DNA of 48,023 bases, from NCBI GenBank assembly GCA_964361095.1, contig CAYHZA010000005.1, forward strand, positions 19,080 to 67,102, written 5' to 3'. The position numbers were made by a program, and so were the translations under genes. Below, piece after piece: positions 1 to 46,077 of this stretch (the first letter of the stretch is position 1; each line of letters starts with the position of its first letter). Under the pieces are notes generated by a model, which worked only from the letters and a program-made list of their open reading frames with translations, ran no database searches and was not told where the DNA came from. This DNA comes from an uncultured Candidatus Saccharibacteria bacterium (GTDB lineage: Bacteria > Patescibacteriota > Minisyncoccia > UBA6257 > 2-01-FULL-56-20).

Positions 1-181
1 GGCAAAGGAGGTACTGAGTACACCAGTGCGAATGTGCCGACGTGCGAAGGCAAAGGAGGTACTGAGTACACCAGTGCGAATGTGCCGACGTGCGAAGGCA
101 AAGTACATTCGCCGTATTCGGCTCAGTATCTTCCTCACTCGCGTTCGTCGAAAGGTACTGAGTACACCAGTGCGAATGTAC
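1..181. repeat. 48-bp tandem duplication plus hairpin element
   Basis: 1-48 is identical to 49-96. AGGTACTGAGTACACCAGTGCGAATGT occurs at 9-35, 57-83 and 153-179. 103-112 pairs with 172-181 and 122-132 pairs with 152-162. Confidence 0.9.
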
Positions 182-612
182 GACAACGAGGAGTAAGTTT
201 GATCGAGGTGATCGCGGTGGTTCTTATCATGGGGCTTATCTTTACGTGGGGGTTGGGCATCGGGCTTAATTTATATCGTAGGGTAACGTTGAACGGTGAA
301 CGCGACGGTCTCGTTATGGTTTTACGGAGCGCGCGGACGAGGGCGCTCGAAAATCGCAATCAATCCGATCACGGAGTTTATGTGGCGACCACGACATTTG
401 TTTTGTTCCAGGGTCCGTCGTACGCGAGCCGAACCACGACGTATGACGAATGGTTTCCGCGCACGACGGGCGTTGCGGTAAACGGCGTAACGAGTACGGT
501 GTTTCTGAGTTTAAGCGGCAACGGGACGGCATCCGGAACGATTACCTTTTCCAACGGATATCAAAGTTCCACTCTTGTTTCTTTAAATTATGAAGGAAGA
601 ATTAACTGGTAA
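1..612 (+). CDS. Type IV pilin-like protein (FimT/GspH-like); start uncertain, frame is open from the window edge
   Basis: QRG|VSLIEVIAVVLIMGLIF prepilin cleavage/N-methylation motif followed by a hydrophobic helix. Frame 1 has no stop from position 1, and its N-terminal part is repeat-derived. Confidence 0.8.
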   Translation, partial: GKGGTEYTSANVPTCEGKGGTEYTSANVPTCEGKVHSPYSAQYLPHSRSSKGTEYTSANVRQRGVSLIEVIAVVLIMGLIFTWGLGIGLNLYRRVTLNGERDGLVMVLRSARTRALENRNQSDHGVYVATTTFVLFQGPSYASRTTTYDEWFPRTTGVAVNGVTSTVFLSLSGNGTASGTITFSNGYQSSTLVSLNYEGRINW

Positions 613-1969
613 AAGAATCGGAATTTCGGGACAAGGAGTTCTCGAGATCTTAATAGCGCTCGCTATTTTGACGATCACGTTGTCGGCGGCAATACTGGTC
701 GTTTATGGCGGTCAGTCTTTACTCTTGGATACGCGGCTGGGTAATCAGGCCTTAAACATCGCGCGTGAAAAACTTGAGAACGCCGAAGATATCGGGCGAA
801 ATGATTTTAACAGTTTAGCGAGCACTTCTTCCGCGTCCGGTATTTTTTCCGGTACGCTTACGGTGACGGCAGTCAATACGAGCACGAAGCAGGTAATAAG
901 CCGCGTGAGTTGGAGCGTTGATCCGTTGCGGGTACAAAAGGTGGAGTTGAAAACTTTGGTGACGAACTGGGTGCCGCCGGTGCCGCTCTTTGGTGACTGG
1001 CAAAATCCGTTATCCAAAGGAACGATAGATTTGGGGCCGGGAAATTCCGGAACAGGGGTTCGTGTGAGAAACAGAATTGTCTATATAACGTCAACAGCCT
1101 CCGATTCCAAAAAGCCTGATTTTTATGTTATTGACGCTACGGATCCGGGAAATCCGACCATTATTTTCAGTACAAGCACCGGTTCCGGTGCGGATGCCGT
1201 AGCTATAGGCGGCAATTATGCCTATATCGCGAATCATGATTCAAGCGGACAGTTGCAGATTATAAATGTTGCAAATCCCGCAAGCTCCTATCTCGTAAAA
1301 ACCTATCAAATTCCAGGGCTTGCGAATAGCGCGTATATCAAAAAACTCACGGTGAGCAACAACATCGCCTATGTGGTCACCGAAAAAAATGCCGGTCCGG
1401 AGTTTTATACGATAGACGTAAGTAATCCCGCAACCCCCGTGCTTCTCGGCACCTTCGAGATAAACGACAATGCGAACGGAATACGCGTTGACGGTACGAC
1501 GGCGTATGTCGCGGTTGCAAACTCGAGCGCGGAGATGAAAACGATCAATGTCTCAAACCTCTCCGCGCCGTCTCTTATGAGCAATTTCAATGCCACGGGG
1601 ACTCTCTCTGGTTACAGCTTGTCGCTTATTCCCGCGAGCTCAACGATGTTTTTGGGTCGCGCGCAAGGGACCGGACCGGAACTTGTCGTCGTAAATGTTT
1701 CAAATCCCGCGGGGATGACGTTAATCAGTAACACCGAAATTGGAGCGAACATTCTCGGCCTGAAGGCCGTAAACTACCTCGTATTTCTTTTGACCGACGA
1801 CGCAAACAATGAATTTAAGGTTTATAATATTTCCAATCTTTCAAATATCGTATTTTGGTCAGAGTTGAATTTCCCACAAGCGCCCAATGATATTGATTAC
1901 GAACGGAATACTCTTTACGTCGCCGTGCGGAGCAACGACGCGCTCCGCATTATTACCTCAACGCGATGA
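590..1969 (+). CDS. Pilin-like N-terminus fused to an LVIVD-repeat beta-propeller (putative pilus adhesin)
   Basis: GQG|VLEILIALAIL prepilin motif. Repeated units FYVIDATDP, LQIINVANP, FYTIDVSNP, LVVVNVSNP. Confidence 0.8.
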   Translation: MKEELTGKRIGISGQGVLEILIALAILTITLSAAILVVYGGQSLLLDTRLGNQALNIAREKLENAEDIGRNDFNSLASTSSASGIFSGTLTVTAVNTSTKQVISRVSWSVDPLRVQKVELKTLVTNWVPPVPLFGDWQNPLSKGTIDLGPGNSGTGVRVRNRIVYITSTASDSKKPDFYVIDATDPGNPTIIFSTSTGSGADAVAIGGNYAYIANHDSSGQLQIINVANPASSYLVKTYQIPGLANSAYIKKLTVSNNIAYVVTEKNAGPEFYTIDVSNPATPVLLGTFEINDNANGIRVDGTTAYVAVANSSAEMKTINVSNLSAPSLMSNFNATGTLSGYSLSLIPASSTMFLGRAQGTGPELVVVNVSNPAGMTLISNTEIGANILGLKAVNYLVFLLTDDANNEFKVYNISNLSNIVFWSELNFPQAPNDIDYERNTLYVAVRSNDALRIITSTR

Positions 1970-2466
1970 AGACGTTACGGGGATTTACGCTTATTGAGAC
2001 ATTGATCTATATTGGTCTTTTTGCCGTGATTATGAGTTTGACGGTCGTGATGCTCTACCAGATCATCGCAAACCAAGACCGGAATCGCGGCGCTATCGAG
2101 GTGGAAGAGGAGGCGAATTTTGTGATGGGAAAAATAAAGTGGGGTTTCTCCGCCATGCGGGTCATTAACCAGCCGACCACAAGCAGTACGGGAAATATCC
2201 TGTCGCTTGATAAGTGGAATTTTAGCCAAAATCCGTTGGTTTTCGGACTTTCCTCGGGAACAGTGACGCTCGCGCGCGGAACAAGCTCCGCGGTCGCGCT
2301 CACGAGCGACAGAGTATTTGTCGATGAGCTTACTTTTTATAACCGCCCCTCGACCAATAACTATCCACCTTCCATTGTTATTACGATGGGGATTCGATCC
2401 GCGTTGTCCTCCTCTACGATCGCTTCGACAACCCTGCGAAACGCGATTTATTTAAGATCTTTTTAG
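1966..2466 (+). CDS. Type IV minor pilin (PilW-like)
   Basis: RG|FTLIETLIYIGLF motif; ATGA overlap with the upstream gene. Confidence 0.85.
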   Translation: MKTLRGFTLIETLIYIGLFAVIMSLTVVMLYQIIANQDRNRGAIEVEEEANFVMGKIKWGFSAMRVINQPTTSSTGNILSLDKWNFSQNPLVFGLSSGTVTLARGTSSAVALTSDRVFVDELTFYNRPSTNNYPPSIVITMGIRSALSSSTIASTTLRNAIYLRSF

Positions 2467-2467
2467 T

Positions 2468-2863
2468 ATGAAAAGAATTATTTCCACAAAAAAAGGATAT
2501 ATCGCCATTACTTCGGCTGTCATGATGATGGGGATTATTATTTTTATCGTGTTTACAATCGGGTTCACTTCGTTTTTAAGCAGAGCGAATCTTTCGCATT
2601 CGTATTACAAAGATAAAACACTCGGCTTGGCTGAGGGATGTCTTCAGGTGGCGCTTTACAAGCTCACCCAATCAAGCACGTATTCCGGCGCGGAAACGAT
2701 TCCGGTTGATACGGAGACGTGTCGCGTTGTCTCGGTCGTCGCGAGCACGACGAGGAAAATTATCGTGACGCAAGGTGAATATCAAAAGGCTTATACGAAC
2801 CTTCGGATTACGATTGACGAGGCGGATTTTGCCCTGTTGAATTGGGAAGAGTTGACTCAGTAG
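2468..2863 (+). CDS. PilX-like minor pilin
   Basis: KKG|YIAITSAVMMMGII lacks Glu5, as PilX/GspK do; GLAEGCLQVAL motif; C-terminal WEE. Confidence 0.7.
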   Translation: MKRIISTKKGYIAITSAVMMMGIIIFIVFTIGFTSFLSRANLSHSYYKDKTLGLAEGCLQVALYKLTQSSTYSGAETIPVDTETCRVVSVVASTTRKIIVTQGEYQKAYTNLRITIDEADFALLNWEELTQ

Positions 2864-2879
2864 AATAGTGGAGTATCCT

Positions 2880-2923
2880 TGTGGATAACTCTTATGACAG
2901 ATTTCTGTCCCTTATGCTATAAT
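2880..2923 (+). promoter_or_regulatory. DnaA-box consensus and extended -10 promoter upstream of the major pilin
   Basis: TGTGGATAA at 2880-2888 (reverse complement TTATCCACA); TGCTATAAT at 2915-2923. Confidence 0.55.
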
Positions 2924-2964
2924 GGTTATAACTTAAAAGGTCGAAAGAATTCTTTCATGTATTA

Positions 2965-3411
2965 ATGAAAAAACAAAGCGGTTTTACCCTCATTGAATTA
3001 TTGGTGGTAATCGGCATTATCGCGATTTTGGCTGGCGTGGTGATCGTGGCGTTGAACCCGGCTCGGCAGTTTGCCCAAGCCAGGAATTCAACCCGACAGG
3101 CGAATGTAACGACCATTTTGAACGCTATTGGCCACAACTCGGTGGAAAATAACGGCAATTTCACCTGCGTTGGCGCCGGTCCGGTTTCGACAAGCACGGT
3201 ACTGGTTATGGGTTCCAGCACCTATAATATCGCGCCTTGTATCGTACCGACCTACGTTTCTATTATGCCCGTAGATCCCACGACCGGAAGTTTTGTGGAC
3301 ACTACGAACTATAATAGTGGCTATACCATCATAAGAGATGCTACGACCGGTCGTTTGACGGTTGCTGCCCCGGCTGGAGAGCTTGGCGTAATTATCTCTC
3401 AGACTCAGTAA
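2965..3411 (+). CDS. Type IV major pilin-like protein
   Basis: SG|FTLIELLVVIGIIAILAGVVIVALNP; a Cys pair; own promoter and terminator. Confidence 0.9.
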   Translation: MKKQSGFTLIELLVVIGIIAILAGVVIVALNPARQFAQARNSTRQANVTTILNAIGHNSVENNGNFTCVGAGPVSTSTVLVMGSSTYNIAPCIVPTYVSIMPVDPTTGSFVDTTNYNSGYTIIRDATTGRLTVAAPAGELGVIISQTQ

Positions 3412-3428
3412 CTTTGACCTCTTGGTCA

Positions 3429-3469
3429 TTAAAAATCCCCTTCGGCTTTTACGCTAAGGGGATTTTTAA
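3429..3469. terminator. Bidirectional intrinsic terminator between pilin and dnaX
   Basis: TTAAAAATCCCCTT...AAGGGGATTTTTAA inverted repeat between convergent genes. Confidence 0.8.
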
Positions 3470-3477
3470 TTCGCCGA

Positions 3478-4590
3478 TTATTCCGTTTTCTTCAGGTGCT
3501 CTATCAGCGCCACTTCGAGCGGTACCGCCGCGAAGGGACTGTAGCGCATTTCACTGTAGCCGCGGATCAAAGCTTTGATCAAGGGAATAGTCTTCTCGGG
3601 GGAAACTTTTTCGGAAAGTTCCTTGAGGCGTTTCAGCTCATCGTTCGTCATTTCTAAATGGAGAAACGTTTCAACTGAAGGGCTTAATTTATATGAAAGA
3701 ATCTTCCTTAGGTAGTGTATGAGATCTTTGGTAAGTTGGATTATGTTATGACCCTCCTCATTAATTTCAGCGAGATAATGAATGGCGCGGGTAAGATCGC
3801 CGTTTATGATGTGTTCGGCAAGCGCGTCAACTTTTTTGAATCCGACTCTTCCGGTCAGACGTTCCGCGACGGAGAGCGTTATCGCGGACTCAAGTGAACC
3901 CAGTTGATCGAGCAATGATTCCGCGTCGCGGAGGCTTCCTTCGCTTGCGGCGGCGATGAGTTCGAGCGCCGCGCCGTCGATCGTTATGCCCTCCGCCTTC
4001 GCAATCAAGGATAATTTTTCGATGATCTTTACTTTCGGCAGTTTTTTAAAGAGAAAGCGCTGGGTTCTCGAGGTGATCGTCGCGGGAAGTTTTTCGTATT
4101 CGGTGGTGGCAAGGATAAGAACGGCATGTCGTGGAGGCTCCTCGAGTGTCTTCAGGAGCGCGTTGAAGGCGGCGCCGGTCAACATATGTACTTCGTCGAT
4201 GATGTAGACCTTGTACGGCGCGCTCGTGGGCACCGAGCCGATGCTCTCTTTAAGATTCCTTATCTCGTCAATGCCGCGATTCGAGGCGGCGTCGATTTCG
4301 ATAAGGTCAAAGGCGTTTCCCTCGTCAACCTCGCGGCACGTTCTGCATTCTCCGCACGGCTCTCCTTTGTCGTGGAATGCCTTGTCGGCATGCCGGCGTT
4401 CGCAGTTTAGGAGTTTCACGACAAGCCGTGCCGTCGTTGTCTTCCCCGTCCCTCGCGGCCCGTAAAAAAGATAGGCGTGGCCTATGCGATCCTGCTTTGC
4501 GGCGTTTTGGAGGATCTGAATGGTCGCTTCCTGCCCGAGAAGTTCCTCTAATTTTTTCGGTCGGTATTTGCGATAAAATGCCAGTGCCAT
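3478..4590 (-). CDS. dnaX: DNA polymerase III subunit gamma/tau (short form)
   Basis: Start reassigned to MALAFYRKYRP. GPRGTGKTT Walker A, EIDAASNRG, IIDEVHML, AFNALLKTLEEPP. Confidence 0.95.
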   Translation of the reverse strand: MALAFYRKYRPKKLEELLGQEATIQILQNAAKQDRIGHAYLFYGPRGTGKTTTARLVVKLLNCERRHADKAFHDKGEPCGECRTCREVDEGNAFDLIEIDAASNRGIDEIRNLKESIGSVPTSAPYKVYIIDEVHMLTGAAFNALLKTLEEPPRHAVLILATTEYEKLPATITSRTQRFLFKKLPKVKIIEKLSLIAKAEGITIDGAALELIAAASEGSLRDAESLLDQLGSLESAITLSVAERLTGRVGFKKVDALAEHIINGDLTRAIHYLAEINEEGHNIIQLTKDLIHYLRKILSYKLSPSVETFLHLEMTNDELKRLKELSEKVSPEKTIPLIKALIRGYSEMRYSPFAAVPLEVALIEHLKKTE

Positions 4591-4693: not shown

Positions 4694-6049
4694 ATGAAAG
4701 TCGCGCTTGTGGTTTTGGGAGTCGGAATAGTGGTCGGTGCCTTTTTTTTATTGAACGGAGAGGGAGTTTTGACGTTTGCTCCTGACGGATCGGTGAATGG
4801 TTCGTTCGAGAAAAGCGTGGAGAGCACCAGCACCTTGTCGATTTCCTCGGGAGTGGGAAATAGTTCCGGTACACTTCCCAAGGGAGGAGTGAACACGACT
4901 TCAACGTTAAAAAATCAGGACATAGAAAAACAGTTGCCGCTTACGTCCTCACCGCTTGAAATTAAGGCGATTTACGCGACCAACTGGACCGCCGGTTCGC
5001 CGCAGAGGATCAAGCGGTTGATCGATTTTGTGGATAAGACGGAGTTGAACGCGATCGTAATCGATATCAAAGATTATTCGGGCTTTCTTGGCTACCGAAC
5101 CGGTATTGCGGACGCAAAGGCAATCGGCGCGGAAAAAGATATCCGCATACTGCGACCGAACGCGCTTATAAAAGAACTTCACGATCACGGCATCTACGTG
5201 ATCGGCCGCATCGCTGTTTTTGAAGATTCTCTTTTGGCAAACGCGCGTCCGGGATGGGCGTTGCAAAACAAGGTGACCGGTGGAATTTGGAAAGATCATA
5301 AAGGACTCGCGTGGCTCGATCCCTCGGTCTCCGACGTATGGGATTATAATATCGCAATCACCAAAGACGCGCTTTCGCGCGGGTTCGACGAGATTAACTT
5401 CGACTACATTCGTTTCGCCTCCGACGGCGATTTGGCGAATATCGGATATCCCGGCTGGGACCAGAAAACTTCCAAAGCAACAGTGATCAAAAAGTTTTTT
5501 AAATATCTTCGCGAGAATCTCCCGGGCGCGAAAATTTCCGCCGATTTCTTCGGTCTCACGACGATAAACTATGACGACCTTGGCATAGGGCAGGTGCTCG
5601 AGTCCGCGTATCAGTATTTCGATTTCGTCGCTCCCATGGTCTACCCGTCCCATTACGCTCCCGGGTTTCTCGGATATAAGAGTCCCGCGAATTTTCCCTA
5701 TGAGGTTGTGAAGTATTCTCTGGAGAATGCCGTGAAACGACTCAAGAATTACGGCATTCCGAGGGTGTCGAACGCGTCATCTACCGCGAGTTCGACCGAT
5801 GCAAACGCGACGAGCGCCGTTCTTTCCGAGAATATTCCGAAAACGAACGCGAAACTTCGACCGTGGCTTCAGGATTTTAATCTGGGAGCCACGTACGATG
5901 CCCCAATGGTTCGAAAGCAAATTCAAGCGACGTACGATTCGGCGACTGGAACGCCGCATCTTATGAATGGCTGGATGCTGTGGAATCCCTCGAATGAATA
6001 TACCGCGGGCGCGCTTGACCTTCAGACCCCAAGTTCTTCGCATGATTAA
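4694..6049 (+). CDS. Putative glycoside hydrolase (DUF4015-like), membrane-anchored
   Basis: N-terminal TM; ELNAIVIDIKD, GFDEINFDYIRF, PMVYPSHY, LRPWLQDF, WMLWNPSNEY. Confidence 0.75.
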   Translation: MKVALVVLGVGIVVGAFFLLNGEGVLTFAPDGSVNGSFEKSVESTSTLSISSGVGNSSGTLPKGGVNTTSTLKNQDIEKQLPLTSSPLEIKAIYATNWTAGSPQRIKRLIDFVDKTELNAIVIDIKDYSGFLGYRTGIADAKAIGAEKDIRILRPNALIKELHDHGIYVIGRIAVFEDSLLANARPGWALQNKVTGGIWKDHKGLAWLDPSVSDVWDYNIAITKDALSRGFDEINFDYIRFASDGDLANIGYPGWDQKTSKATVIKKFFKYLRENLPGAKISADFFGLTTINYDDLGIGQVLESAYQYFDFVAPMVYPSHYAPGFLGYKSPANFPYEVVKYSLENAVKRLKNYGIPRVSNASSTASSTDANATSAVLSENIPKTNAKLRPWLQDFNLGATYDAPMVRKQIQATYDSATGTPHLMNGWMLWNPSNEYTAGALDLQTPSSSHD

Positions 6050-6060
6050 TCAGAACCCCT

Positions 6061-6819
6061 ATGGCTTTTGACCTCGCGCTCGAACAATTCAGCGGTCCCA
6101 TCCATAAGCTTCTTGAACTTGTGGAAGAAAGAAAATTGGAGATTACCGAGATCAGTTTGGCGAAGGTAACGAACGATTTTTTGGCATATTTAAAAACTTT
6201 GGAAAAAATAGAAACGCCGCTTCTCGCGGATTTTGTGGTGGTCGCGAGCCGCCTCGTGCTTATTAAATCAAAATCGCTTCTTCCCGAACTTGCTTTGACC
6301 GACGAGGAACAGGGAGAGATCAAAGACCTCGAGAATCGTCTCATACTTTTTCGTGAATTTAAACCGGCGATGAAAGACATCGCTTCGTTGTGGGATAAGG
6401 GAGGAAGGCAATACGCGCGCCCTTATCTTTTAGTACGGGAGCTTACTGCCTTAGATCAAACCGATTTTTCGGGCGAGGGAGTGAAGATGTTTTATCCCGG
6501 CGCATCAGTTACGAACGATGCGCTGTTTGAATCACTAAGAAAGATATTTTCTGTTTTCCAAAAACTGGAGACCGAGGAGCAAACCGTTAAGGAAAAAATC
6601 ATTACGGTTGAGGAAAAAATACAGGAAATTATACGCCGCGTAAGCGAACTCGGCAGTACGAGTTTCAGGCATCTTTCCGAAACAAAATCCCGCTCGGAAA
6701 TCATAACGCTTTTTTTGGCGGTGCTTCATCTGGCTCGGGAACAGTTGATTTTTTTGGAGCAAAAGAGCTATTTTTCTGATATACTCATCAATGCGGTTGA
6801 GGCGGAAAAGCCCCTGTGA
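6061..6819 (+). CDS. scpA: Segregation and condensation protein A
   Basis: FSGPIHKLLELV, LIKSKSLLP, FLAVLHL; adjacent to scpB. Confidence 0.92.
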   Translation: MAFDLALEQFSGPIHKLLELVEERKLEITEISLAKVTNDFLAYLKTLEKIETPLLADFVVVASRLVLIKSKSLLPELALTDEEQGEIKDLENRLILFREFKPAMKDIASLWDKGGRQYARPYLLVRELTALDQTDFSGEGVKMFYPGASVTNDALFESLRKIFSVFQKLETEEQTVKEKIITVEEKIQEIIRRVSELGSTSFRHLSETKSRSEIITLFLAVLHLAREQLIFLEQKSYFSDILINAVEAEKPL

Positions 6820-7379
6820 CCATGGAAGAAGACAAAAACAAAGAAAAACTTTCATCCCTCGAAGCTCTGCTTTTTATCTATGGTGAGCCTATCGCGGAGA
6901 CGAAGATCCAAAAAACACTTGGATTGAAAAAAGCCGAAACGGAAGCGCTTATAGCTGCGTTTAAGGAGGAGCTTGCTCGTCCGGATCGGGGATTAACGCT
7001 TGTCGTGACATCAGGGAAGGTACAGTTGGTAACGAAGGTTCAATTTAACACATTGCTTGAATCGTTTGCCAAAGAAGAATTAGGAGGGGAGCTTACGCCC
7101 GCGAGCCTCGAAACGCTCTCGATTATCGCCTATCTTGGACCTGTAAACAGGGCGAAGATAGATTACCTTCGCGGGGTAAATTCCGCATTTACCGTGCGGA
7201 ATCTGCTTCTTCGGGGACTTATTGAACGCGAAACAAACCCCGACGATTCGCATAGTTATCTTTATGCGCCAAGCGTGGAGCTCATCCGCCATCTCGGTCT
7301 TTCGAATCGCGAAAGCTTGCCCGACTATCAAAAATTTCAATCTCTTTTGAAAATAGGAGAAGAGCACAATGCGGGATAA
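6816..7379 (+). CDS. scpB: SMC-Scp complex subunit ScpB
   Basis: LEALLF, LETLSIIAY, IDYLRGVNS. The start may be the ATG at 6822. Confidence 0.93.
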   Translation: MTMEEDKNKEKLSSLEALLFIYGEPIAETKIQKTLGLKKAETEALIAAFKEELARPDRGLTLVVTSGKVQLVTKVQFNTLLESFAKEELGGELTPASLETLSIIAYLGPVNRAKIDYLRGVNSAFTVRNLLLRGLIERETNPDDSHSYLYAPSVELIRHLGLSNRESLPDYQKFQSLLKIGEEHNAG

Positions 7380-37921: not shown

Positions 37922-39130
37922 ATGAAAAATGCAATTGACAAAGTATTAGAAAGAATAATCGCGCAGAAATCAAAAGTTGTAGCGGAATCGAAGCCACTCA
38001 TTTTGGACTTAAGTAAAACAAAAGACAAGCATACGATATCGAAGTTATTATCTAGCAGAAAGGTTCAACAAGTTATTGATGATTATAAGGAACAGTTGCA
38101 TGAGCTTTTTGCCGTTAAAAATCCAACATTGGTTTACGCTCAAAATTTCGCCGATAAGTTTGCCGAATATTTTAGTAATTTAGAGAAGCAAAAGCCGCTG
38201 TCGGAATACGGTCGTTGGGTTTATTTCCCGTGGCTTGGCGTAGTAACTCATATTTTAGAAGATAAGGATTTCCAATTAGTGAGAACGGCCCGGAATAAAA
38301 ATCTTATTACCAAAGAAGAGCAAGAAAGGTTTTACAATGCCGTAATCGGCATAGGCGGATTAAGCGTAGGCAATAGCGTCGCAATGGCGATTGTTTTACA
38401 AGGCGGAGGAAGGCATATTCGGCTTGCGGATTTTGATCGTCTTGCGCTTTCGAATACGAATAGAGTTAATGCCGGTATCCAAAATCTGGGACTTTTGAAG
38501 GTTGAAATAACGGCACGTCAGATATACACCTTGAATCCTTATGCGAAAGTTGAACTTTTTACGGAAGGATTAACCACAAAAAACATAAGAAAATTTTTTG
38601 TCGGTCCGCCCAAGTTGGATATTGTCGTGGATGAATTGGATAATATCGCGATTAAATTTCTTATTCGAGAAGAGGCAAAGCGCCATCGTTTAGCAGTTGT
38701 TATGGCTGCTGATAATGGAGATAATGCGGTGGTCGACATTGAGAGATACGATAAAAATCCGAAGCAGAAGTTTTTTCATGGGCGGCTGGGTAATGTAAAT
38801 TATAAGGGATTAACAGGTTTAGATAAGTTTGGAATCGGAAAAACTATCACAAAACATATTGGTCCGGAGAACGTAACCGAGCGGATGAAAGAGTCGCTTT
38901 TGGAAATGGGGAAAACAATTGTTTCATGGCCGCAACTTGGGGGAGCCGCGCTACTTAATGGTTCGGCGGTTGCCTATTGCGTCCGCAAGATTCTCAATGG
39001 ACAGCAGATTGAAAGCAATCGTGCGATTATCTCTTTGGACGAGCAGTTGCTACCGACGTATCATTCGTCCATCGAAAAAAAGAAACGCCTGAAGGCGGTT
39101 AACACATTCAAGAAAGTTTTTGGGTTATAG
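37922..39130 (+). CDS. ThiF family adenylyltransferase (Rv1355c/MoeY N-terminal-like)
   Basis: RWVYFPW, RTARN, IGGLSVG, LADFDRLALSNTNR, VVDELD, SWPQLG. Confidence 0.85.
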   Translation: MKNAIDKVLERIIAQKSKVVAESKPLILDLSKTKDKHTISKLLSSRKVQQVIDDYKEQLHELFAVKNPTLVYAQNFADKFAEYFSNLEKQKPLSEYGRWVYFPWLGVVTHILEDKDFQLVRTARNKNLITKEEQERFYNAVIGIGGLSVGNSVAMAIVLQGGGRHIRLADFDRLALSNTNRVNAGIQNLGLLKVEITARQIYTLNPYAKVELFTEGLTTKNIRKFFVGPPKLDIVVDELDNIAIKFLIREEAKRHRLAVVMAADNGDNAVVDIERYDKNPKQKFFHGRLGNVNYKGLTGLDKFGIGKTITKHIGPENVTERMKESLLEMGKTIVSWPQLGGAALLNGSAVAYCVRKILNGQQIESNRAIISLDEQLLPTYHSSIEKKKRLKAVNTFKKVFGL

Positions 39131-40032: not shown

Positions 40033-41022
40033 TTATAGCGGAGGATTGGATAAAAGTTCTGCTATTGCACGGGAAATTGGCATTCCTGTTAGTTCTTCGA
40101 TCCAGCCCCACTGCCCACTGGGATTTATCTCGAGGAAGACATACTGACCTTCAGGAGTCAGAATCATGTCAATTGCCCCGAAGCTTAAGTCCCATGATTT
40201 CATCAGTTTCAAAAGAGCGTCTCGAACTTCATTTGGTAAATCGAATTGCTCGTGCCGGACGTTCCCAAAATCATATCGCCGCCAGTCGTCTTGAGTTCTT
40301 GTGCTATCCTGTGAATGTATCGCGCACGTAAAAACATTGTTGCCAACAATCGTAATACGCAGTTCAAGTTTCTTGGGGATGTATTCTTGCGCAAAGACAG
40401 GAGCGATTCGAATGCTCTCAAAATGCGTTCGTAGCTCATCCTCGGAGACTCGGTTAGTGTAGAGTGTGTAGATCTCGCCCGAGGCGGAGTCAACGAAAAG
40501 ATGTCCCTTGAGCATCTTAACCGCAATTGATCCTCCGCATGCGCGGCAAAATTCCAGAAGGTTTTTGGGGTCGTTGGTGATGATAGTTCTGGGAACAAGA
40601 AGACCATGGCGTGAGGCGCATTTCAACTGAAAAAACTTGTTATGCTCTAATAGTCGATTTGCGACGACAGGCTTATTCATCCAGAATGTCTCAAGGGTCG
40701 TATAGAGTGACCACAATGCAGCTGTGGATTCCTCTTTGACTAACTTGAAGTATCCTTCCGGAAGAACTGATAGGTTTTCGGGAGAGCGGGTTCCCCGATA
40801 CCAGCAGCTTTTTATCTCCATTAGAGAAATTATGGGGTTATCGGCAATCCTCAGCATGCCATCAAGGTTCTTGTCGCTAAGCTCTAGATTCACTTGCGAA
40901 TCGCGGGGAAACGTTTCCGTGTTGAACTTGAGATATTTTTGATCCATTTGCTCGAAGCACGCTATTACCGGGTTGACGCTAACATCGGGAGCGCTTGTTA
41001 AAATCAGAACTGCATCTTTCAC
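40033..41022 (-). CDS. ATP-grasp RiPP maturase (MvdC/MvdD graspetide synthetase-like)
   Basis: VLILT..D, FNTETFP, WMNKP, NKFFQL, VPRTIITND, QEYIPKKLELRITIVG, DWR, FGAIDMI, FLEINPSGQWGWIE; SD AAGGAGG. Confidence 0.92.
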   Translation of the reverse strand: MKDAVLILTSAPDVSVNPVIACFEQMDQKYLKFNTETFPRDSQVNLELSDKNLDGMLRIADNPIISLMEIKSCWYRGTRSPENLSVLPEGYFKLVKEESTAALWSLYTTLETFWMNKPVVANRLLEHNKFFQLKCASRHGLLVPRTIITNDPKNLLEFCRACGGSIAVKMLKGHLFVDSASGEIYTLYTNRVSEDELRTHFESIRIAPVFAQEYIPKKLELRITIVGNNVFTCAIHSQDSTRTQDDWRRYDFGNVRHEQFDLPNEVRDALLKLMKSWDLSFGAIDMILTPEGQYVFLEINPSGQWGWIEELTGMPISRAIAELLSNPPL

Positions 41023-41114
41023 CGAGGTTCCTCCTTCCGCTTAGTTGCTTATTGTGTTTTTAAGGTGCTGTGTCTAAAGTTAAGGTAAGCGCTATTCTAT
41101 ATATAAGTCAAGAT

Positions 41115-41873
41115 ATGGAGCAAAAAAAGTCCACGCAAGAAATTCCCCAAAGAACGAAGCAGCACCTCTTTAAGGTTCTTCAAGCTGCCGATGCAAAACG
41201 AAAATATCGTTGGGCAATTGATGTCTATGAGCACTATCGTAAAGTCTATTCCTTCGACGACGCGCTTGACTACAGGTTGGCGTTACTCTATGACCACTTG
41301 GTAATATTCAAAATAGAAAAACTATTAGATAAAACAAAAAAGCAGAAATTTTTAAAAAAATACCTTAAGAAAGCAGAGAACATTTATCGTGCAATAGTAA
41401 AAAGAAATCCAGATTACCACCTCGCATTCCACGGCTTGAGCCGTGTGTACCAAGCTCGCGCGCAATATCGAAAGGCAATCATGTACGCAAAAAGAGCATA
41501 TGCCCTTCTTAAAAAACTTCCAAAAAAGAGACGTGGTGTACTTGGTATAGGCAATGTGTTCTTATTGGCAGGCGACCACAAGAATGCCGAAAAATGGTTT
41601 AAAAAAGAATTGAACGATCTAGGTAAAAATCACCTGGGAGCGAATGCTAATGTAATGATGTTTTATCTTCAAACAAACAATCTTAAAAAAGGTTTGCCAT
41701 ACGCCCTCAAGACAGAAAAACTTCTTACAAGCGAACTTGCAAAGCCGATCTATCGAGGGGTCAATACAGGTTCAAGCAATAAAACGATCGGGTTGTTGAG
41801 AAAAAGGATTGATAAAATTAAGCAATTTAATTCTCACATGAAAAATAAACAGCCCACCGTTGGTGGGCTGTAG
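41115..41873 (+). CDS. TPR-repeat protein
   Basis: AENIYRAIVKRNPDYHLAFHGLSRVYQARAQYRKAIMYAKRA and IGNVFLLAGDHKNAEKWFKK TPR patterns. ATG at 41115 preferred over GTG at 41070. Confidence 0.8.
   Translation: MEQKKSTQEIPQRTKQHLFKVLQAADAKRKYRWAIDVYEHYRKVYSFDDALDYRLALLYDHLVIFKIEKLLDKTKKQKFLKKYLKKAENIYRAIVKRNPDYHLAFHGLSRVYQARAQYRKAIMYAKRAYALLKKLPKKRRGVLGIGNVFLLAGDHKNAEKWFKKELNDLGKNHLGANANVMMFYLQTNNLKKGLPYALKTEKLLTSELAKPIYRGVNTGSSNKTIGLLRKRIDKIKQFNSHMKNKQPTVGGL
41842..41871 (-). terminator. Terminator of precursor 1
   Basis: ACAGCCCACC-GTT-GGTGGGCTGT perfect stem with a T-rich tail on the minus strand, just past the precursor stop. Confidence 0.75.
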
Positions 41874-41886
41874 GAATACAGTTCCT

Positions 41887-42087
41887 TCAGTCGCTGCAGT
41901 CGTAGTCCAAGACGTCGTTGCCTCCTGTCGAGTTGATCTGGGTTGCAGTCGCCGAAGGCGATTCTTGGCCGACCCTTTGTATTCCCGGTTTTTCCAGGAA
42001 GTTTGCGATGAAGGGTTTCGGTCCGACGTGGTTGACTGAAAGCTCAATGAGAGCTTCTGGAGGAGCAGTTGTCATGGTTCGCATCAC
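41887..42087 (-). CDS. Graspetide (omega-ester peptide) precursor candidate
   Basis: SD GGAGGTG 6 nt before the GTG at 42087 (ATG follows at 42084). Leader KPFIANFLE resembles microviridin PFFARFL. Core SPSATATQINSTGGNDVLDYDCSD has Ser/Thr followed by Asp. Confidence 0.82.
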   Translation of the reverse strand: MMRTMTTAPPEALIELSVNHVGPKPFIANFLEKPGIQRVGQESPSATATQINSTGGNDVLDYDCSD

Positions 42088-42092
42088 TTTTT

Positions 42093-42166
42093 TCACCTCC
42101 TTTCTTTTGAATTTTTAAATTACTAACTAATTTCATAATGACAAGGTTTTTATGTTTTGTCAACTT
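42093..42166 (-). promoter_or_regulatory. 74-bp promoter+RBS cassette, copy 1
   Basis: TTGACA-17nt-CATTAT ... AAAGGAGGTGA; 70/74 identical to 44986-45059. Confidence 0.85.
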
Positions 42167-42205
42167 GCCATCTATTTCTGTAGCTTGATTCTGCTATAAT
42201 AAAAG

Positions 42206-42254
42206 TATGATTCCTCGCGAAGATATTCAGAAAATTCTTGAAGCGCAAGTATAG
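42206..42254 (+). pseudogene. Gene 5' stub MIPREDIQKILEA, copy 1
   Basis: Preceded by TGCTATAAT; 42206-42236 matches 46038-46068 at 29/31, both differences synonymous. Confidence 0.65.
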
Positions 42255-42337
42255 AAAAACGCTTGACAAATTTGCTTTAATGAGTTATTTTATGGGAAGT
42301 ATCTTGGTATAAATAAGGTCAAGAAAAGGAGAAACCG

Positions 42338-42478
42338 ATGCGGTGTCAACATGGTTCTCCGGAGGAATGCCGCTTCAGAAATTGCGAAGGGTCGCTCGCG
42401 GCCCCCGGTTCATGGAAAGATTTCTTCAAAAGACTTATTGAATTCCTCAAGTCTTATTTTAAAAGAATTAACTCATAG
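42338..42478 (+). CDS. Small 46-aa peptide (not in ORF track)
   Basis: AAGGAG SD and TTGACA near 42264. MRCQHGSPEECRFRNCEGSLAAPGSWKDFFKRLIEFLKSYFKRINS. Confidence 0.5.
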   Translation: MRCQHGSPEECRFRNCEGSLAAPGSWKDFFKRLIEFLKSYFKRINS

Positions 42479-42550
42479 CTGGACGACAAGTCCAGCTATT
42501 GTTTTTAAAATATAACATCCGCTTGCTATATATGTTCAAAACTTTCGAGC

Positions 42551-42588
42551 AAAAAAATGAGCTAAACGAATTTCTGTTTAGCTCATTT
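42551..42588 (-). terminator. Terminator of the radical SAM gene
   Basis: AAATGAGCTAAAC...GTTTAGCTCATTT 13-bp stem with a T-run on the minus strand. Confidence 0.8.
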
Positions 42589-42606
42589 GAATTCTGACAG
42601 GTTGGT

Positions 42607-43887
42607 TTAGGTTGGCGTTTCCTCAAGAGAACCCCATTCTCCAAGATATGGACTGTAGAGGCACTCTGTGGGTTTCGCCACGAAGCTTCCCGACTTATCC
42701 ATGTTTTTTGCTTTTGGCCTGCAATCGAAGCAGGCGTATCGGTACTCGCAATCCCTGCAAATTTCGATATGGTCCTTAGAGAGTTGTCTGATTCTTTGCG
42801 CACGTCCTTTCTTAAGGATGTTTTCCAGGCTTGTTTCCAGTACGTTGCCGTAGGACATATCTCGTTCCATAATACAGGGATATACATCGCCACTCGGTCC
42901 TACGCACACCTTCTTTGAAAAACAGTTGTGTCCATAGTGCCGTTGAGTAAAAATCTCTTTCGTGCACTTTGGAAAAACTGGTCTAGTGAGATACGTGGAG
43001 GAGATTAGCTTGGTAGGTACGAGATCATTGTTGCAACCCCGGCCACTGGGTCTTACCAGATCTACCCCTACGCGTGGAATCCCCAATTCCGTGAGAAAAC
43101 ATTTCGTCTCCTCAAGGTTGTCTTGATTGTGAATCATACCAACAATTCCGGCTCGCACCTCTAGCCCAGCGGCAAGCATCCTTTTGACGTTGCTTACCGT
43201 GTGAGCGTGACTATTTTTCCCGAGGGTGATTCGTTCATGAATTGCCGGATCGTCACCGTAGAAAGAAACTGCCACGTTGACTTTGTGCTCTTTCAATGCA
43301 TCCAGCATTCTGTCGGTGAGGATAGTTGCGTTTGTAAAAACCTCTACAAACGCGAAAGATCGCTTCCTCGCATATTTGATCAATCGGATGAGATTTTCAC
43401 CCAGTATCAGTGGTTCTCCACCGATAAATTGAAGTTTTTTACACCCGAGATCGGAGACCTGATCAATGACCGAAAGCCAATCTTGGATTGACATCCGATC
43501 TTTTCCGATCAGCGAGGGATTACTTCCCGCATAGCAGTGCACACACTTCAGATTACATCCGGCGGTGAGCTCAAGCCAAATGAAGCTCAGGAGTTTCTGG
43601 TCCTTATTGATGTCGACTTTCTGGATTTTTTCTCCTGCTTCGAGATATCTCCCTAACTTGGACTCAGCCAGTTTGTTCAAATACTCAATCGACTCACCCC
43701 TGTTCAGTTCAGGGTTTTCTGTGAATATGGCCTTGGGAGACAACCCTTGTTCACAGAGTTCCAGAAGTTTTCTGGCCTCCTGATCGATGGAGTATACGTT
43801 ACCGTCCTCCAAATTATAGATCGCGGCACGTTTAGCTCCGGTAACCAAAAACACATTTTCAGCAAGTCCGAACTTTCTGCTTTCCAT
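42607..43887 (-). CDS. Radical SAM/SPASM peptide maturase with N-terminal RRE-like domain
   Basis: CNLKCVHC, IGGEPL, FTNAT; SPASM C...GDVYPC...CRDCEYRYACFDCR...C; about 90-aa PqqD-like N-terminus; SD AAGGAG. Confidence 0.92.
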   Translation of the reverse strand: MESRKFGLAENVFLVTGAKRAAIYNLEDGNVYSIDQEARKLLELCEQGLSPKAIFTENPELNRGESIEYLNKLAESKLGRYLEAGEKIQKVDINKDQKLLSFIWLELTAGCNLKCVHCYAGSNPSLIGKDRMSIQDWLSVIDQVSDLGCKKLQFIGGEPLILGENLIRLIKYARKRSFAFVEVFTNATILTDRMLDALKEHKVNVAVSFYGDDPAIHERITLGKNSHAHTVSNVKRMLAAGLEVRAGIVGMIHNQDNLEETKCFLTELGIPRVGVDLVRPSGRGCNNDLVPTKLISSTYLTRPVFPKCTKEIFTQRHYGHNCFSKKVCVGPSGDVYPCIMERDMSYGNVLETSLENILKKGRAQRIRQLSKDHIEICRDCEYRYACFDCRPKAKNMDKSGSFVAKPTECLYSPYLGEWGSLEETPT

Positions 43888-43978
43888 ACACGCTCCTTAA
43901 TTAAGTCAAAGGTCTTGCTGTATAATCCTTTATAAGTGCTGTATTGTCAAGAAAGTAGTCATGATATAAACTATTAAT

Positions 43979-44788
43979 ATGATTCGTCTTTCATTTATAG
44001 TTGATAAAAGTTTTATATTGCAACACATACTGAAAAGTTTTTCGGACTGGCGTAGTGTCAAAGTTTTAAAACATAAACTCTGGAAACGAAATCAAAAACT
44101 TTACTATATCCTTGCGCAAAATATTGAACCTTTGACGTTCGCTGATAACTTTTCAGAGGAACTTAAAAGGGCCGTTAAGGATTCTCTATCTGACCTTTCT
44201 TTTATTTATAAGAACCCTTTGTTTAGAAAAATACTAAAAGAAACTGAGAAGTATAGATTATTTGTCAATGAGCAGTGGGAAAAGAATTATAATTTATCGC
44301 TGATGCATATGCGGGATATTACAAAGTTGCCGCTTGATACCGTGCAGTTAAATCTTGAGGTATATATTTCTCACCCGAAGCTATCCAGGGGCAGATCGTA
44401 TCCGGAACAGCGTGTCATCGCATGGGCTCATAGTGAGGATTGGAAGAACTATTCAACAGTATATCTTTGGCATGAAATTATGCATCACATTGCGTATAGC
44501 CGAAAAGGAAGCTCTCATCTTATGCATGCATTAATTGAATTAGCGTGCGATAACGAATTGCGGGTTAGACTTAATGGAAGAGGCGGATATTTCAGGGAGG
44601 GCGAATTCGATGTCGGTCATAACTATTTAGTGAAGTTAGAAAGAAAGATAACAGAAGAATGGAAAAAATATTTAAACGATCCCCGTACTAATGTTTATCA
44701 ATTAGAGAGAAAATTACGTTCCAAATTCTCAGAGGAGTTTTTAGTGTCGCGACAATCAGCGCTTAACGAGTGGGCTGAATGGCACTAA
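43979..44788 (+). CDS. HExxH motif protein (putative zinc metallopeptidase)
   Basis: VYLWHEIMHH with downstream HALIEL. Confidence 0.65.
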   Translation: MIRLSFIVDKSFILQHILKSFSDWRSVKVLKHKLWKRNQKLYYILAQNIEPLTFADNFSEELKRAVKDSLSDLSFIYKNPLFRKILKETEKYRLFVNEQWEKNYNLSLMHMRDITKLPLDTVQLNLEVYISHPKLSRGRSYPEQRVIAWAHSEDWKNYSTVYLWHEIMHHIAYSRKGSSHLMHALIELACDNELRVRLNGRGGYFREGEFDVGHNYLVKLERKITEEWKKYLNDPRTNVYQLERKLRSKFSEEFLVSRQSALNEWAEWH

Positions 44789-44817
44789 AAAATACGGCAT
44801 CCAAAGTGGATGCCGTA
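44787..44817 (-). terminator. Terminator of precursor 2
   Basis: TACGGCATCCA-CTT-TGGATGCCGTA-TTTTTT on the minus strand. Confidence 0.85.
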
Positions 44818-44836
44818 GCAGTTTTGCGAGTTTGAT

Positions 44837-44980
44837 CTATGACGGCATGCACGCCGGTTGGCAGTCGGGTCCGCACTGAGGAATGCATTCCGTGCTTTCG
44901 GGCGCAACTTGTTCTCCGTCTGGAGCGTTGTCACTCGACTGAAGTTTCTGGTTTCCCTGAGTGACCTTTGTAAGTTCCAA
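44837..44980 (-). CDS. Cys-rich RiPP precursor candidate, 47 aa (not in ORF track)
   Basis: SD GGAGGTG 6 nt before TTG. MELTKVTQGNQKLQSSDNAPDGEQVAPESTECIPQCGPDCQPACMPS. Own promoter and terminator. Confidence 0.82.
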   Translation of the reverse strand: MELTKVTQGNQKLQSSDNAPDGEQVAPESTECIPQCGPDCQPACMPS

Positions 44981-44985
44981 GTTTC

Positions 44986-45059
44986 TCACCTCCTTTCTTT
45001 TGAATTTGTAAATTACTAACTAGTTCCATAATGGCAAGGTTTTTATGTTTTGTCAACTT
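44986..45059 (-). promoter_or_regulatory. 74-bp promoter+RBS cassette, copy 2
   Basis: 70/74 identical to 42093-42166; TTGACA-17-CATTAT; AAAGGAGGTGA. Confidence 0.85.
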
Positions 45060-45062
45060 TTT

Positions 45063-45102
45063 ACCCGCCGAAGCCTTGGGCGAAGGAGTGGCGGAGGCGG
45101 GT
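45063..45102. repeat. REP-like palindrome
   Basis: ACCCGCC...GGCGGGT; the core CCGAAGCCTTGG(G)CGAAGGAG also occurs inverted at 29377-29405. Confidence 0.7.
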
Positions 45103-45165
45103 GCCGTCGGGGAGTAACTCACAGCCGTGGAAATCCTCCTTAATTTCTGGTATAATGTAAGTACC

Positions 45166-45405
45166 ATGGCAATTGATCAAAGGTTAAAGAAATACTTTTG
45201 GGATACGGATTTCAATGCCCTAGACAGAAAGAAGCACAAGCGTTATATCATTGAGCGTATTTTAGAGATGGGGGATGAGCCGGCGGCGGCGTGGATGAGG
45301 CAAACATTTTCCAAGGACGACATTATAAAGGTGCTCAATGCAACGAGAAATATATCGAAGCGGAGCATGCATTTTTGGCATCTCGTTCTCGACCGTTCTG
45401 TATGA
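45166..45405 (+). CDS. DUF6922-like putative antitoxin
   Basis: YFWDTD..LD..KH..YIIERILEMGD...FW; TGGTATAAT upstream. Confidence 0.8.
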   Translation: MAIDQRLKKYFWDTDFNALDRKKHKRYIIERILEMGDEPAAAWMRQTFSKDDIIKVLNATRNISKRSMHFWHLVLDRSV

Positions 45406-46025
45406 AAATACACGCTGAAGCGCTTCCAAAAGATACAGAGCGTCTTCTGCCTTCGCTTGCAGAGATGCCCTCTGTCAAAAACTTTTATCTTGCGGGTGGC
45501 ACCGCGCTCGCTTTGCAGATCGGGCATAGAATATCCGGCGATTTGGATTTCTTTTCGGAAGAAGCTTTTGACGAATCCTTGTTGATTCAAAAACTGTCTG
45601 GGTCCTATGAATTTCAGATAGAGAAGAAGTCAGAACAAACCGTACTTAGTATAATTAGCGGCGTCAAAGTATCTTTCCTCGGGTATCCCTATCCGCTCTT
45701 GGTTCCCGCTAATGAGGCACTCGGTGTACGCGTTGCGGATATTCGCGATATCGCCTGTATGAAAATTGACGCGGCGTCAAACCGCGGCACCAAGCGCGAT
45801 TTTATTGATCTGTACTGTATTATCCGCGCCGCGTTTTCCCTTTCGGACATCCTGCAGTTTTTTGAAAAGAAATATTCTATACTGCACTACAACATGATGC
45901 ACATCAAAAAGAGTTTGGTTTATTTTGAAGACGCCGAAGGCGACCCCATGCCGCAGATGCTTCAGCCGGTTTCATGGGAGGAGGTAAAATCATTCCTGGA
46001 ACGCGAGGCGTTGCGTCTTTCATAG
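45402..46025 (+). CDS. AbiEii/AbiGii family nucleotidyltransferase toxin
   Basis: FYLAGGTALALQIGHRISGDLDFF, MKIDA..RGTKRDFIDLY, SLVYFEDAE; ATGA coupling. Confidence 0.9.
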   Translation: MKIHAEALPKDTERLLPSLAEMPSVKNFYLAGGTALALQIGHRISGDLDFFSEEAFDESLLIQKLSGSYEFQIEKKSEQTVLSIISGVKVSFLGYPYPLLVPANEALGVRVADIRDIACMKIDAASNRGTKRDFIDLYCIIRAAFSLSDILQFFEKKYSILHYNMMHIKKSLVYFEDAEGDPMPQMLQPVSWEEVKSFLEREALRLS

Positions 46026-46037
46026 GCGGCGTCTTAA

Positions 46038-46077
46038 TATGATCCCTCGCGAAGATATTCAAAAAATTAGCAACTAG
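46038..46077 (+). pseudogene. Gene 5' stub MIPREDIQKI, copy 2
   Basis: Direct repeat of 42206-42236. Confidence 0.65.

Follow-up and report, generated by a model that had tools for sequence, protein, structure and literature searches.

Why should two peptide genes whose products share no sequence start behind nearly the same 78 nt of DNA? The question is raised by a 48,023-nt stretch of contig CAYHZA010000005.1 (positions 19,080 to 67,102 of the forward strand; assembly GCA_964361095.1) from an uncultured “Candidatus Saccharibacteria” bacterium, referred to here as the window. A first-pass annotation had noted in it two copies of a 74-bp cassette made up of a promoter, an untranslated leader, and a Shine-Dalgarno (SD) sequence, and had offered two explanations: coregulation of two peptide precursors or a recombination anchor through which whole modules are added or swapped. 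The reading that we consider probable, with moderate confidence, is that the cassette arose by recent copying of an expression signal, by which the precursors of two unrelated pathways for peptides that are made on ribosomes and modified posttranslationally (RiPPs) would be expressed alike, as short mRNAs independent of the genes for their modifying enzymes.

RESULTS

The same expression cassette precedes two short open reading frames

The two copies form the only direct-repeat family in the window (42089 to 42166 and 44982 to 45059; 78 nt, 73/78 identical, or 94%), at a spacing of 2893 nt, and both lie on the minus strand, a point that the first-pass annotation had left out. The 74-nt core described in the first-pass annotation (42093 to 42166 and 44986 to 45059) is contained in this repeat, and our alignment reproduced its 70/74 identity. 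A degenerate pattern of the core matched the window exactly twice, with 0 matches in 100 dinucleotide shuffles. The whole assembly (822,488 bases in 16 contigs, 98.7% complete) contains these two copies only, both in front of precursor open reading frames (ORFs), and the cassette is therefore not a generic repeat that precedes housekeeping genes.

Both copies have the layout AAG-TTGACA, a 17-nt spacer, TGn-CATTAT, an A/U-rich leader of ∼40 nt, GGAGGTGA, 5 nt, and the start codon. The −35 and −10 elements, with a spacer inside the 16- to 18-nt range of sigma-70-type promoters, match the consensus hexamers at 10 of 12 positions in both copies and are accompanied by a TG before the −10 element. 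The stretch between the SD and the start codon reads GGAGGTGA-AAAAA-GTG in copy 1 and GGAGGTGA-GAAAC-TTG in copy 2, and the first base of each start codon is the sixth nucleotide after GGAGGTGA, as had been claimed. The program used for ORF calling placed the start of both peptide ORFs at a GTG within the SD; GTG 42087 (or ATG 42084) and TTG 44980 are the plausible starts. Each SD stands at a working distance from the start of a real gene, since both ORFs have homologs beside homologous enzymes.

The identity begins 3 nt upstream of TTGACA and stops at the start codon. The five differences between the copies lie at the n of TGn, immediately past the −10 element, within the leader, and immediately past the SD, and alignment of the two copies revealed none within the −35 element, the −10 element, or the SD. 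The encoded peptides share no sequence, as stated by the annotation (no BLASTP alignment at an E value of ≤100). The signal scan and this anatomy agree with its description of the cassette as what appears to be a full promoter-leader-SD unit. The minimum free energy (MFE) of the leader was 0 and −2.3 kcal/mol for the two copies, no better than that of shuffled sequences, and no Rfam family matched at its gathering score; the sole match at an E value of ≤1, RefA9 (E = 0.33), fell on a terminator hairpin and not on the cassette. On these grounds, a structured leader or riboswitch was rejected.

Downstream of each cassette come a single short ORF and a strong intrinsic terminator (41871 to 41849 and 44817 to 44793), an arrangement that would produce two units of one gene each, about 290 and 235 nt long (Table 1). 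The enzyme genes and a third small gene of the region have separate promoters, also with a perfect TTGACA, which makes the cassette specific to the precursor units.

The stretch is present in eight sequencing runs of two groundwater-type studies, none of them recorded as RNA, and the Logan contigs of four of these runs were compared with it. In run X1, a single 12,985-nt contig covers 40900 to 45039 with 0 differences, and contigs from runs X4, X6, and X7 of the second study give the same layout in pieces. Metagenome contigs thus support both copies and the intervening DNA.

Table 1. Features of the region, in positions of the window
Feature	Position	Strand	Signals and evidence
Cassette copy 1	42089..42166	-	-35 at 42158-42163; -10 CATTAT at 42135-42140; SD GGAGGTGA at 42093-42100
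Cassette copy 2	44982..45059	-	-35 at 45051-45056; -10 CATTAT at 45028-45033; SD at 44986-44993
Precursor 1, predicted graspetide precursor, 66 aa from GTG 42087 (ATG at 42084)	41887..42087	-	PFIANFLEKP leader; T/S- and D/E-rich core (…TATQINSTGGNDVLDYDCSD)
Intrinsic terminator after precursor 1	41849..41871	-	10-bp stem, T-run
TPR protein, conserved neighbor of this ATP-grasp clade	41070..41873	+	Pfam; lies between precursor 1 and ATP-grasp
MvdD/MvdC-like ATP-grasp ligase	40033..41022	-	PF21068, 45.3 bits (cutoff 27)
Precursor 2, predicted, 47 aa from TTG 44980	44837..44980	-	Leader MELTKVT…; core CIPQCGPDCQPACMPS with four CxPx repeats
Intrinsic terminator after precursor 2	44793..44817	-	11-bp stem, T6; shared hairpin, terminating the convergent HExxH gene as well
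HExxH protein, 269 aa, probably a zincin-type leader peptidase	43979..44788	+	HEIMH…18 aa…ELACD
Putative radical SAM/SPASM peptide maturase, 426 aa	42607..43887	-	PF04055, 80.9 bits; PF13186, 43.2 bits; both over cutoffs
Promoter and terminator of the radical SAM gene	43950-43922 (TTGACA-17-GATTAT); 42588-42555	-	Signal scan
Third small gene, 46 aa	42338..42478	+	TTGACA promoter at 42263-42291; AAGGAG ribosome binding site; terminator at 42475-42499; inside the 2.9-kb unit
Nitroreductase 5' stub A (MIPREDIQKILEAQV*)	42207..42254	+	TATAAT at 42195-42200; start 43 nt from TTGACA of cassette copy 1
Nitroreductase stub B, GC-rich, frameshifted (…PSGSNSQPWK)	45098..45135	+	Possibly from 45063, directly beside the -35 of cassette copy 2; PF00881 weak (E = 0.12)
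Nitroreductase 5' stub A' (MIPREDIQKISN*)	46039..46077	+	29/31 identical to 42206-42236
DUF6922/AbiEii toxin-antitoxin pair	45166..46025	+	PF21956, 60.7 bits; PF08843, 60.1 bits; between stubs B and A'

The two short genes are predicted to encode precursors of different RiPP classes

Makarova et al. (2022, PMC8939145) describe Phhx(1,2)h as a signature of graspetide leaders. The leader PFIANFLEKP of peptide 1 fits it, and we therefore read this peptide as a predicted graspetide precursor, with TATQINSTGGNDVLDYDCSD as part of its core. The residues P28, F29, and F33 were invariant in an alignment of three sequences. The ATP-grasp ligase belongs to the MvdD/MvdC family and not to the TIGR04184 or TIGR04185 subfamilies, against which it scored 233.9 bits (cutoff, 475) and about 234 bits (also below the cutoff), respectively. 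The comparison with relatives used 301 sampled genomes of the order, among which G000 is the genome studied here. PF(L/I)xxF peptides adjoin ATP-grasp homologs in two relatives (loci L050 and L023), the order precursor, TPR gene, and ATP-grasp gene is the same in L050, and a TPR gene was found by tblastn beside the ATP-grasp gene in 5 of 11 relatives' loci, examined with flanks of 1.5 kb only. Another MvdD-like ATP-grasp, which has 50% identity to the first one, is encoded on the minus strand at the very end of contig C5 (G000 C5:69319-70302; L033 3311-4327). A precursor for it was not found, and contig C5 breaks in a repeat just upstream of the promoter of this second ATP-grasp gene.

Peptide 2, with the core CIPQCGPDCQPACMPS, is predicted to be the Cys/Pro-rich precursor of a pair of enzymes, a radical S-adenosylmethionine (SAM)/SPASM protein and an HExxH protein. 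Precursor-2-like peptides adjoin the radical SAM homolog in four extended loci. In L046, L048, and L049, leaders of the form ELxKVT with CxP-rich cores lie beside the radical SAM and HExxH genes, and in L047 (genome G240), the core CVPQCGPDCxPACIPSP occurs twice (70 to 82% identical), in frame behind a shortened radical SAM remnant. Relatives of precursor 2 were not found among the called proteins of 25 to 83 aa, where short ORFs with TTG starts were probably not called.

The radical SAM protein contains the motif CNLKCVHC, which conforms to the CxxxCxxC of the radical SAM core, and a SPASM domain. It matched 81 NCBIfam families at an E value of ≤0.01, and the best 25 of the 81 all scored below their curated cutoffs. 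The best match, TIGR04193 (SPASM_w_grasp), covered the C-terminal part only, and the scores for StsB (99.5; cutoff, 625) and PapB (64.4; cutoff, 340) were far from membership. No named maturase subfamily (grasp-with-spasm, StsB, PapB, AlbA, and others) could be assigned among the best 25 of the 81 families. We considered a “grasp-with-spasm” link between the two modules and rejected it as a matter of membership because of these scores and because the modules rarely co-occur. Cross-processing between the graspetide and radical SAM modules is possible.

The HExxH gene adjoins the radical SAM homolog in 11 of 11 relatives' loci. Residues H165, E166, and H169 were invariant in 10 sequences, and an ExxxD motif follows 18 residues on. 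The protein matched no Pfam or NCBIfam family, its family profile matched none of the solved structures in the PDB, and the Atlas gave weak leads only (Peptidase_M78/MA). Judged by its motif, it is probably a zincin-like leader peptidase; some HEXXH enzymes in RiPP pathways are reportedly oxygenases. The module of radical SAM/SPASM protein, HExxH protein, and CxPx peptide as a whole has no match in the family libraries scanned and is kept in 12 genomes of the order.

The product of the third small gene has three Cys residues within its first 16 residues, followed by an amphipathic, basic, helix-like tail, and the gene was not found by tblastn in the relatives' loci. It could encode an additional peptide product or, for the radical SAM module, an immunity or helper protein.

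The two modules occur separately in relatives, and the cassette is lineage specific

The ATP-grasp ligase was found in 20 of the 301 genomes and the radical SAM-HExxH pair in 12. Both were present in G000 and G300 only, and 10 of the 12 genomes with the pair had no ATP-grasp; the cassette therefore joins two otherwise separate modules. When the cassette was used as a BLAST query, 14 of 60 relatives gave matches, all to the A-rich and SD part only, and these were rejected as generic. The longest match in 28 homologous loci (133 kb) was 24 nt. Exact patterns of the leader (34 nt) and the promoter (22 nt) gave 0 matches in metagenome contigs and the 22-mer gave 0 in genome contigs, a weak negative result, as the further copy described below differs within the 34-nt pattern and records of the same genome were possibly left out. 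The cassette is lineage specific and is part of neither module in relatives.

The population carries a further copy

Metagenome contigs break inside copy 2 (45017 to 45039) because a further copy shares words with it. A 3864-nt contig of run X1, with a depth of 46.1 (main contigs, 42.3 to 43.6), carries 45017 to 45056 with one mismatch, then 45 other letters, and then a nitroreductase start; the latter matches 42207 to 42244 with four mismatches and continues into a longer nitroreductase-like reading frame. A 948-nt contig with a depth of 49.1 carries 44975 to 45039 with four mismatches and one gap before the sequence diverges, and by hand reading, the frame of the TTG of copy 2 gives MEAVIKGKEFSR…. 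The joint of cassette and nitroreductase start was present in all four runs at depths of 46.1, 7.0, 3.2, and 2.8, which track the depth of the genome itself, and neither flank of the further copy was found in the binned assembly. We conclude that the genome of this population has at least one more copy of the cassette, in front of another ORF, on an unbinned contig. The 3864-nt and 948-nt contigs are likely the two sides of one locus.

Nitroreductase gene fragments surround the cassette copies

The 31-nt repeat at 42206 to 42236 and 46038 to 46068 (29/31 identical) and a longer copy at C5:68483-68535 are all copies of a nitroreductase gene start, MIPRE(D/T)IQKI…. The name is based on a 28-residue copy (L033:2501-2584) that scored 31.1 bits against PF00881 (cutoff, 23.5) and aligned with positions 373 to 398 of the Rv1355c-family profile; the gene at 37922 to 39130 is the ThiF half of such an Rv1355c-family protein (NCBIfam). 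The assembly contains no intact nitroreductase gene. Five 5'-end fragments lie within ∼8 kb, all on the plus strand (42206-42236, 45098-45135, 46038-46068, C5:68483-68589 [L033 2484-2590], and L033 1349-1603). The stubs at 42207, 45098, 46039, and C5:68501 have one orientation and separate cargo blocks of ∼3.4 to 3.8 kb, of which the first comprises the radical SAM module and the AbiE toxin-antitoxin pair, followed by HAD/NDK-NUDIX genes and others. The fragment at L033:1349-1603 is an 84-aa ORF in which a nitroreductase N terminus is joined to a tail that resembles the C terminus of the ThiF-like gene at 37922 to 39130.

The distance from a leftward TTGACA to the nitroreductase start is 43 nt at copy 1, 45 nt at the further copy, and 47 nt in L033, where the promoter is a diverged look-alike in front of a GRDP-like gene (L033, about 2448-2453). 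Given this recurrence at three places, the view that fits best is of the cassette as the leftward half of a bidirectional promoter block, which would have undergone several duplications with a different leftward gene in each case. The repeat noted in the first-pass annotation is real; because every copy abuts a nitroreductase 5' fragment, the duplicated unit was probably this block and not a free-standing 74-bp element. Over 10 codons read by eye, stub B, directly upstream of cassette copy 2, and the L033 copy differ solely at third codon positions, which makes stub B an old homolog and not a recent copy.

Other repeats in the assembly

An element of 55 to 67 nt or longer (…GGTTCCAAGCTATTGAACC…, with two small palindromes) was found at the ends of contigs C5 (70363 to 70429), C6 (2 to 68), and C7 (69229 to 69294). 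It lies directly upstream of a TTGACA −35 element at these three contig ends, and as a repeated sequence it causes assembly breaks; when considered as a relative of the cassette, it proved unrelated. Contigs C3, C4, C7, C8, C9, C10, and C11 carry hairpin-rich dispersed repeat families (50 to 220 nt, three to seven copies each), in a number unexpected for a 0.8-Mb genome. An 18.9-kb sequence is 100% identical between C1:105843-124779 and C5:43-18979, most likely because the same region was assembled twice, and the assembly size would then be overstated by 18.9 kb. The window starts just after this region, at a 48-nt tandem repeat (window 1 to 192). By eye, C11:1-70 opens within a 16S-like sequence, at the 3' end (…GTCGTAACAAGG…GGATCA), and what follows GGATCA is not the usual CCTCCTT anti-SD tail, although genes carry strong GGAGG sites.

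DISCUSSION

We propose that the cassette is a complete leftward expression signal, with an extended −10 promoter, an unstructured leader, a strong SD, and a fixed distance to the start codon. A groundwater bacterium with a small genome, Patescibacteria-like in size, would have set this signal before at least two, and probably three, short one-gene units, each with its own terminator. Two of these units would encode the precursors of unrelated RiPP modules, a graspetide module with ATP-grasp and TPR proteins and a Cys/Pro-rich peptide module with radical SAM/SPASM and HExxH proteins. The precursors would then receive the same transcription and translation initiation, leading to equal and probably high expression that is uncoupled from that of the modifying enzymes. 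We infer that the copies are young paralogs produced by the duplications and recombinations that built the island and that the rightward half of the ancestral bidirectional block would have started a nitroreductase gene, whose stubs now mark the joints. The sharp borders at the −35 element and the start codon would be expected if the only surviving recombinants were those in which a functional promoter-leader-SD still preceded an intact reading frame. A side effect would be that RecA could delete or amplify the 2.9-kb radical SAM module, which is flanked by direct repeats.

Several points weigh against this proposal. Promoter-like matches occur in the region at a near-background rate (18 found versus 15 expected), and it is from consensus matches that we infer promoter use, transcription start sites, and coexpression. 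The further copy is known from contig ends only, is absent from the binned assembly, and has sides not proven to be one locus. Copy 2 has neither the 43-nt spacer nor the nitroreductase promoter, and its stub diverged anciently, so that a single block duplication fails to account for all copies. Finally, because the genome has many other short dispersed repeats, repeat-mediated shuffling without a selected function is possible.

The first-pass annotation had raised the possibility that the cassette is a recombination anchor. In this reading, the cassette, alone or with the nitroreductase stub, would be kept as homology for inserting, swapping, or excising peptide genes or modules, with shared expression as a secondary effect. 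We regard this as unlikely. The identity does end abruptly at the −35 element and the start codon before at least three different ORFs, and the direct repeats, 2893 nt apart, flank a complete module. The excisable 2.9-kb unit described in the annotation is to that extent confirmed in containing precursor 2, the HExxH gene, and the radical SAM gene, but it also holds the third small gene (42338 to 42478) and a nitroreductase stub. The single orientation of the nitroreductase stubs between cargo blocks points the same way, as does the presence of RecA in the assembly. RiPP modules of relatives are likewise found between direct repeats or gene fragments: in G050 (L050, contig G050:C2), the graspetide module lies between 62-nt terminator-bearing repeats (3633 to 3694 and 5813 to 5874; 90% identical, spacing of 2180), and in G240 (L047, contig G240:C9), the radical SAM-HExxH module lies between three repeat pairs (1867 to 3494 versus 5573 to 7099; spacing of about 3706 nt), with fragments of neighboring genes at the flanking repeats in both. 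However, excision or swapping between the copies found no support, in that the contigs of the four runs, which drop rare forms, contained no joint of both copies with the 2.9 kb removed, nor any circle or hybrid joint. Two apparent joints, one formed by cassette, 45 nt, and nitroreductase start and one at the nitroreductase stub at C5:68505, were rejected as deletion or circle forms because both are paralogous. No recombinase was recognized by Pfam among the window ORFs scanned, and the site-specific recombinase expected of an integron- or island-type array was not found there; the one PF00589 tyrosine recombinase of the assembly, which lacks at least one locus, is on contig C2. In addition, 74 nt of homology is a poor substrate for RecA, and no relative searched had the same cassette with other cargo.

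A more far-reaching version, in which cassette and nitroreductase 5' stub together form a reusable docking point, appears quite improbable to us. Cargo such as RiPP modules, a toxin-antitoxin pair, and other small genes would be inserted serially at the nitroreductase 5' end, stubs would be left behind, and leftward peptide genes would be given a ready promoter-leader-SD. If true, a minimal genome would possess a “plug-in” platform for its secondary metabolism, integron-like but without a recombinase, and the cassette could be used as a probe for unknown precursor genes.

Improbable, too, is a shared regulatory target, in which the 74 nt is kept as the site of a repressor, an alternative sigma factor, a small RNA, or an RNA-binding protein that governs a small precursor regulon. 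This reading would explain why near identity continues through the spacer and the leader, at positions dispensable for a plain promoter, and copy 1 has a TGACAA/TTGTCA inverted repeat across the spacer, but this repeat is broken in copy 2 (TTGCCA), and the leader has neither structure nor an Rfam match. The cassette identity, which ends 3 nt upstream of TTGACA, includes no shared site upstream of the −35 element and so no activator site of the kind found in quorum-sensing bacteriocin promoters, and the sharp edges and the 94% identity are more in keeping with recent copying than with constraint on individual sites. A generic dispersed repeat, similar to a miniature inverted-repeat transposable element (MITE) or a repetitive extragenic palindrome (REP), or an assembly artifact without bearing on expression is largely excluded and very improbable: although short repeats number about 140 pairs in the genome, including several hairpin-rich families and repeats at the ends of contigs, the cassette has two copies in 822 kb, neither the hairpin or terminal inverted repeats nor the many copies of a MITE or REP, and in both places stands exactly before a precursor ORF with the same SD-to-start spacing, in a layout that the X1 contig reproduces without differences and that recurs in the runs of the second study.

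If the cassette is a copied expression signal, as we favor, it would offer a 0.8-Mb genome with few regulators a way to express the substrates of two unrelated pathways alike, apart from their enzymes. RiPP precursor genes are hard to find, and the promoter-leader could serve as a nucleotide probe for them in the same population, in which a third ORF is already indicated by contig ends. Around the modules, the stubs and repeats offer a concrete and testable picture of the gain, duplication, and loss of modules in genomes of the candidate phyla radiation (CPR) type.

The graspetide module resembles the CPR graspetide clusters described by Makarova et al. (2022, PMC8939145) in its MvdD-like ATP-grasp, TPR neighbor, and short Phhx(1,2)h precursor with a T/S- and D/E-rich core. 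Those authors distinguish a “branch 1” with TPR proteins from a “branch 2” with SPASM and zincin neighbors; SPASM enzymes and zincin-type peptidases occur near some CPR ATP-grasp genes. Unlike in those clusters, the SPASM-HExxH pair described here has a Cys/Pro-rich precursor of its own and is found without an ATP-grasp in 10 of 12 genomes. The word “promoter” has 0 occurrences in the main text of that study, the supplementary tables of which may list these or similar loci. A nonexhaustive search of the literature found no paper on a promoter-leader shared between RiPP classes.

With thioether-forming maturases of the sactipeptide and ranthipeptide type, such as AlbA, StsB, and PapB, the second module shares a radical SAM-SPASM protein beside a short Cys-rich precursor. 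It differs in that no scanned family matched either its CxPx-repeat core or its obligate HExxH partner.

Precursor regulons with similar promoters are known for class II bacteriocins and RiPPs, such as the Blp/Com systems of streptococci and the Pln system of lactobacilli. In these mosaic loci, several small peptide genes have common upstream signals, and shuffling via conserved 5' parts has been proposed. Their common part is a response-regulator box upstream of the −35 element, often with a conserved double-glycine leader peptide. In the window, no such regulator repeats were found upstream of the −35 element; the identity instead starts at the −35 element and spans the promoter core, the untranslated leader, and the SD, and the peptides come from different RiPP classes. 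A further likeness is to the segmental duplication of a bidirectional promoter, in which a block is copied together with the 5' end of the neighboring gene and truncated stubs are left. Unlike in a plain duplication of a promoter region, the copies have different leftward genes, and one of them is joined to a divergent homolog of the rightward gene. The cassette is real and, as a case in which expression signals have probably been copied within a heavily rearranged gene island, moderately unusual.

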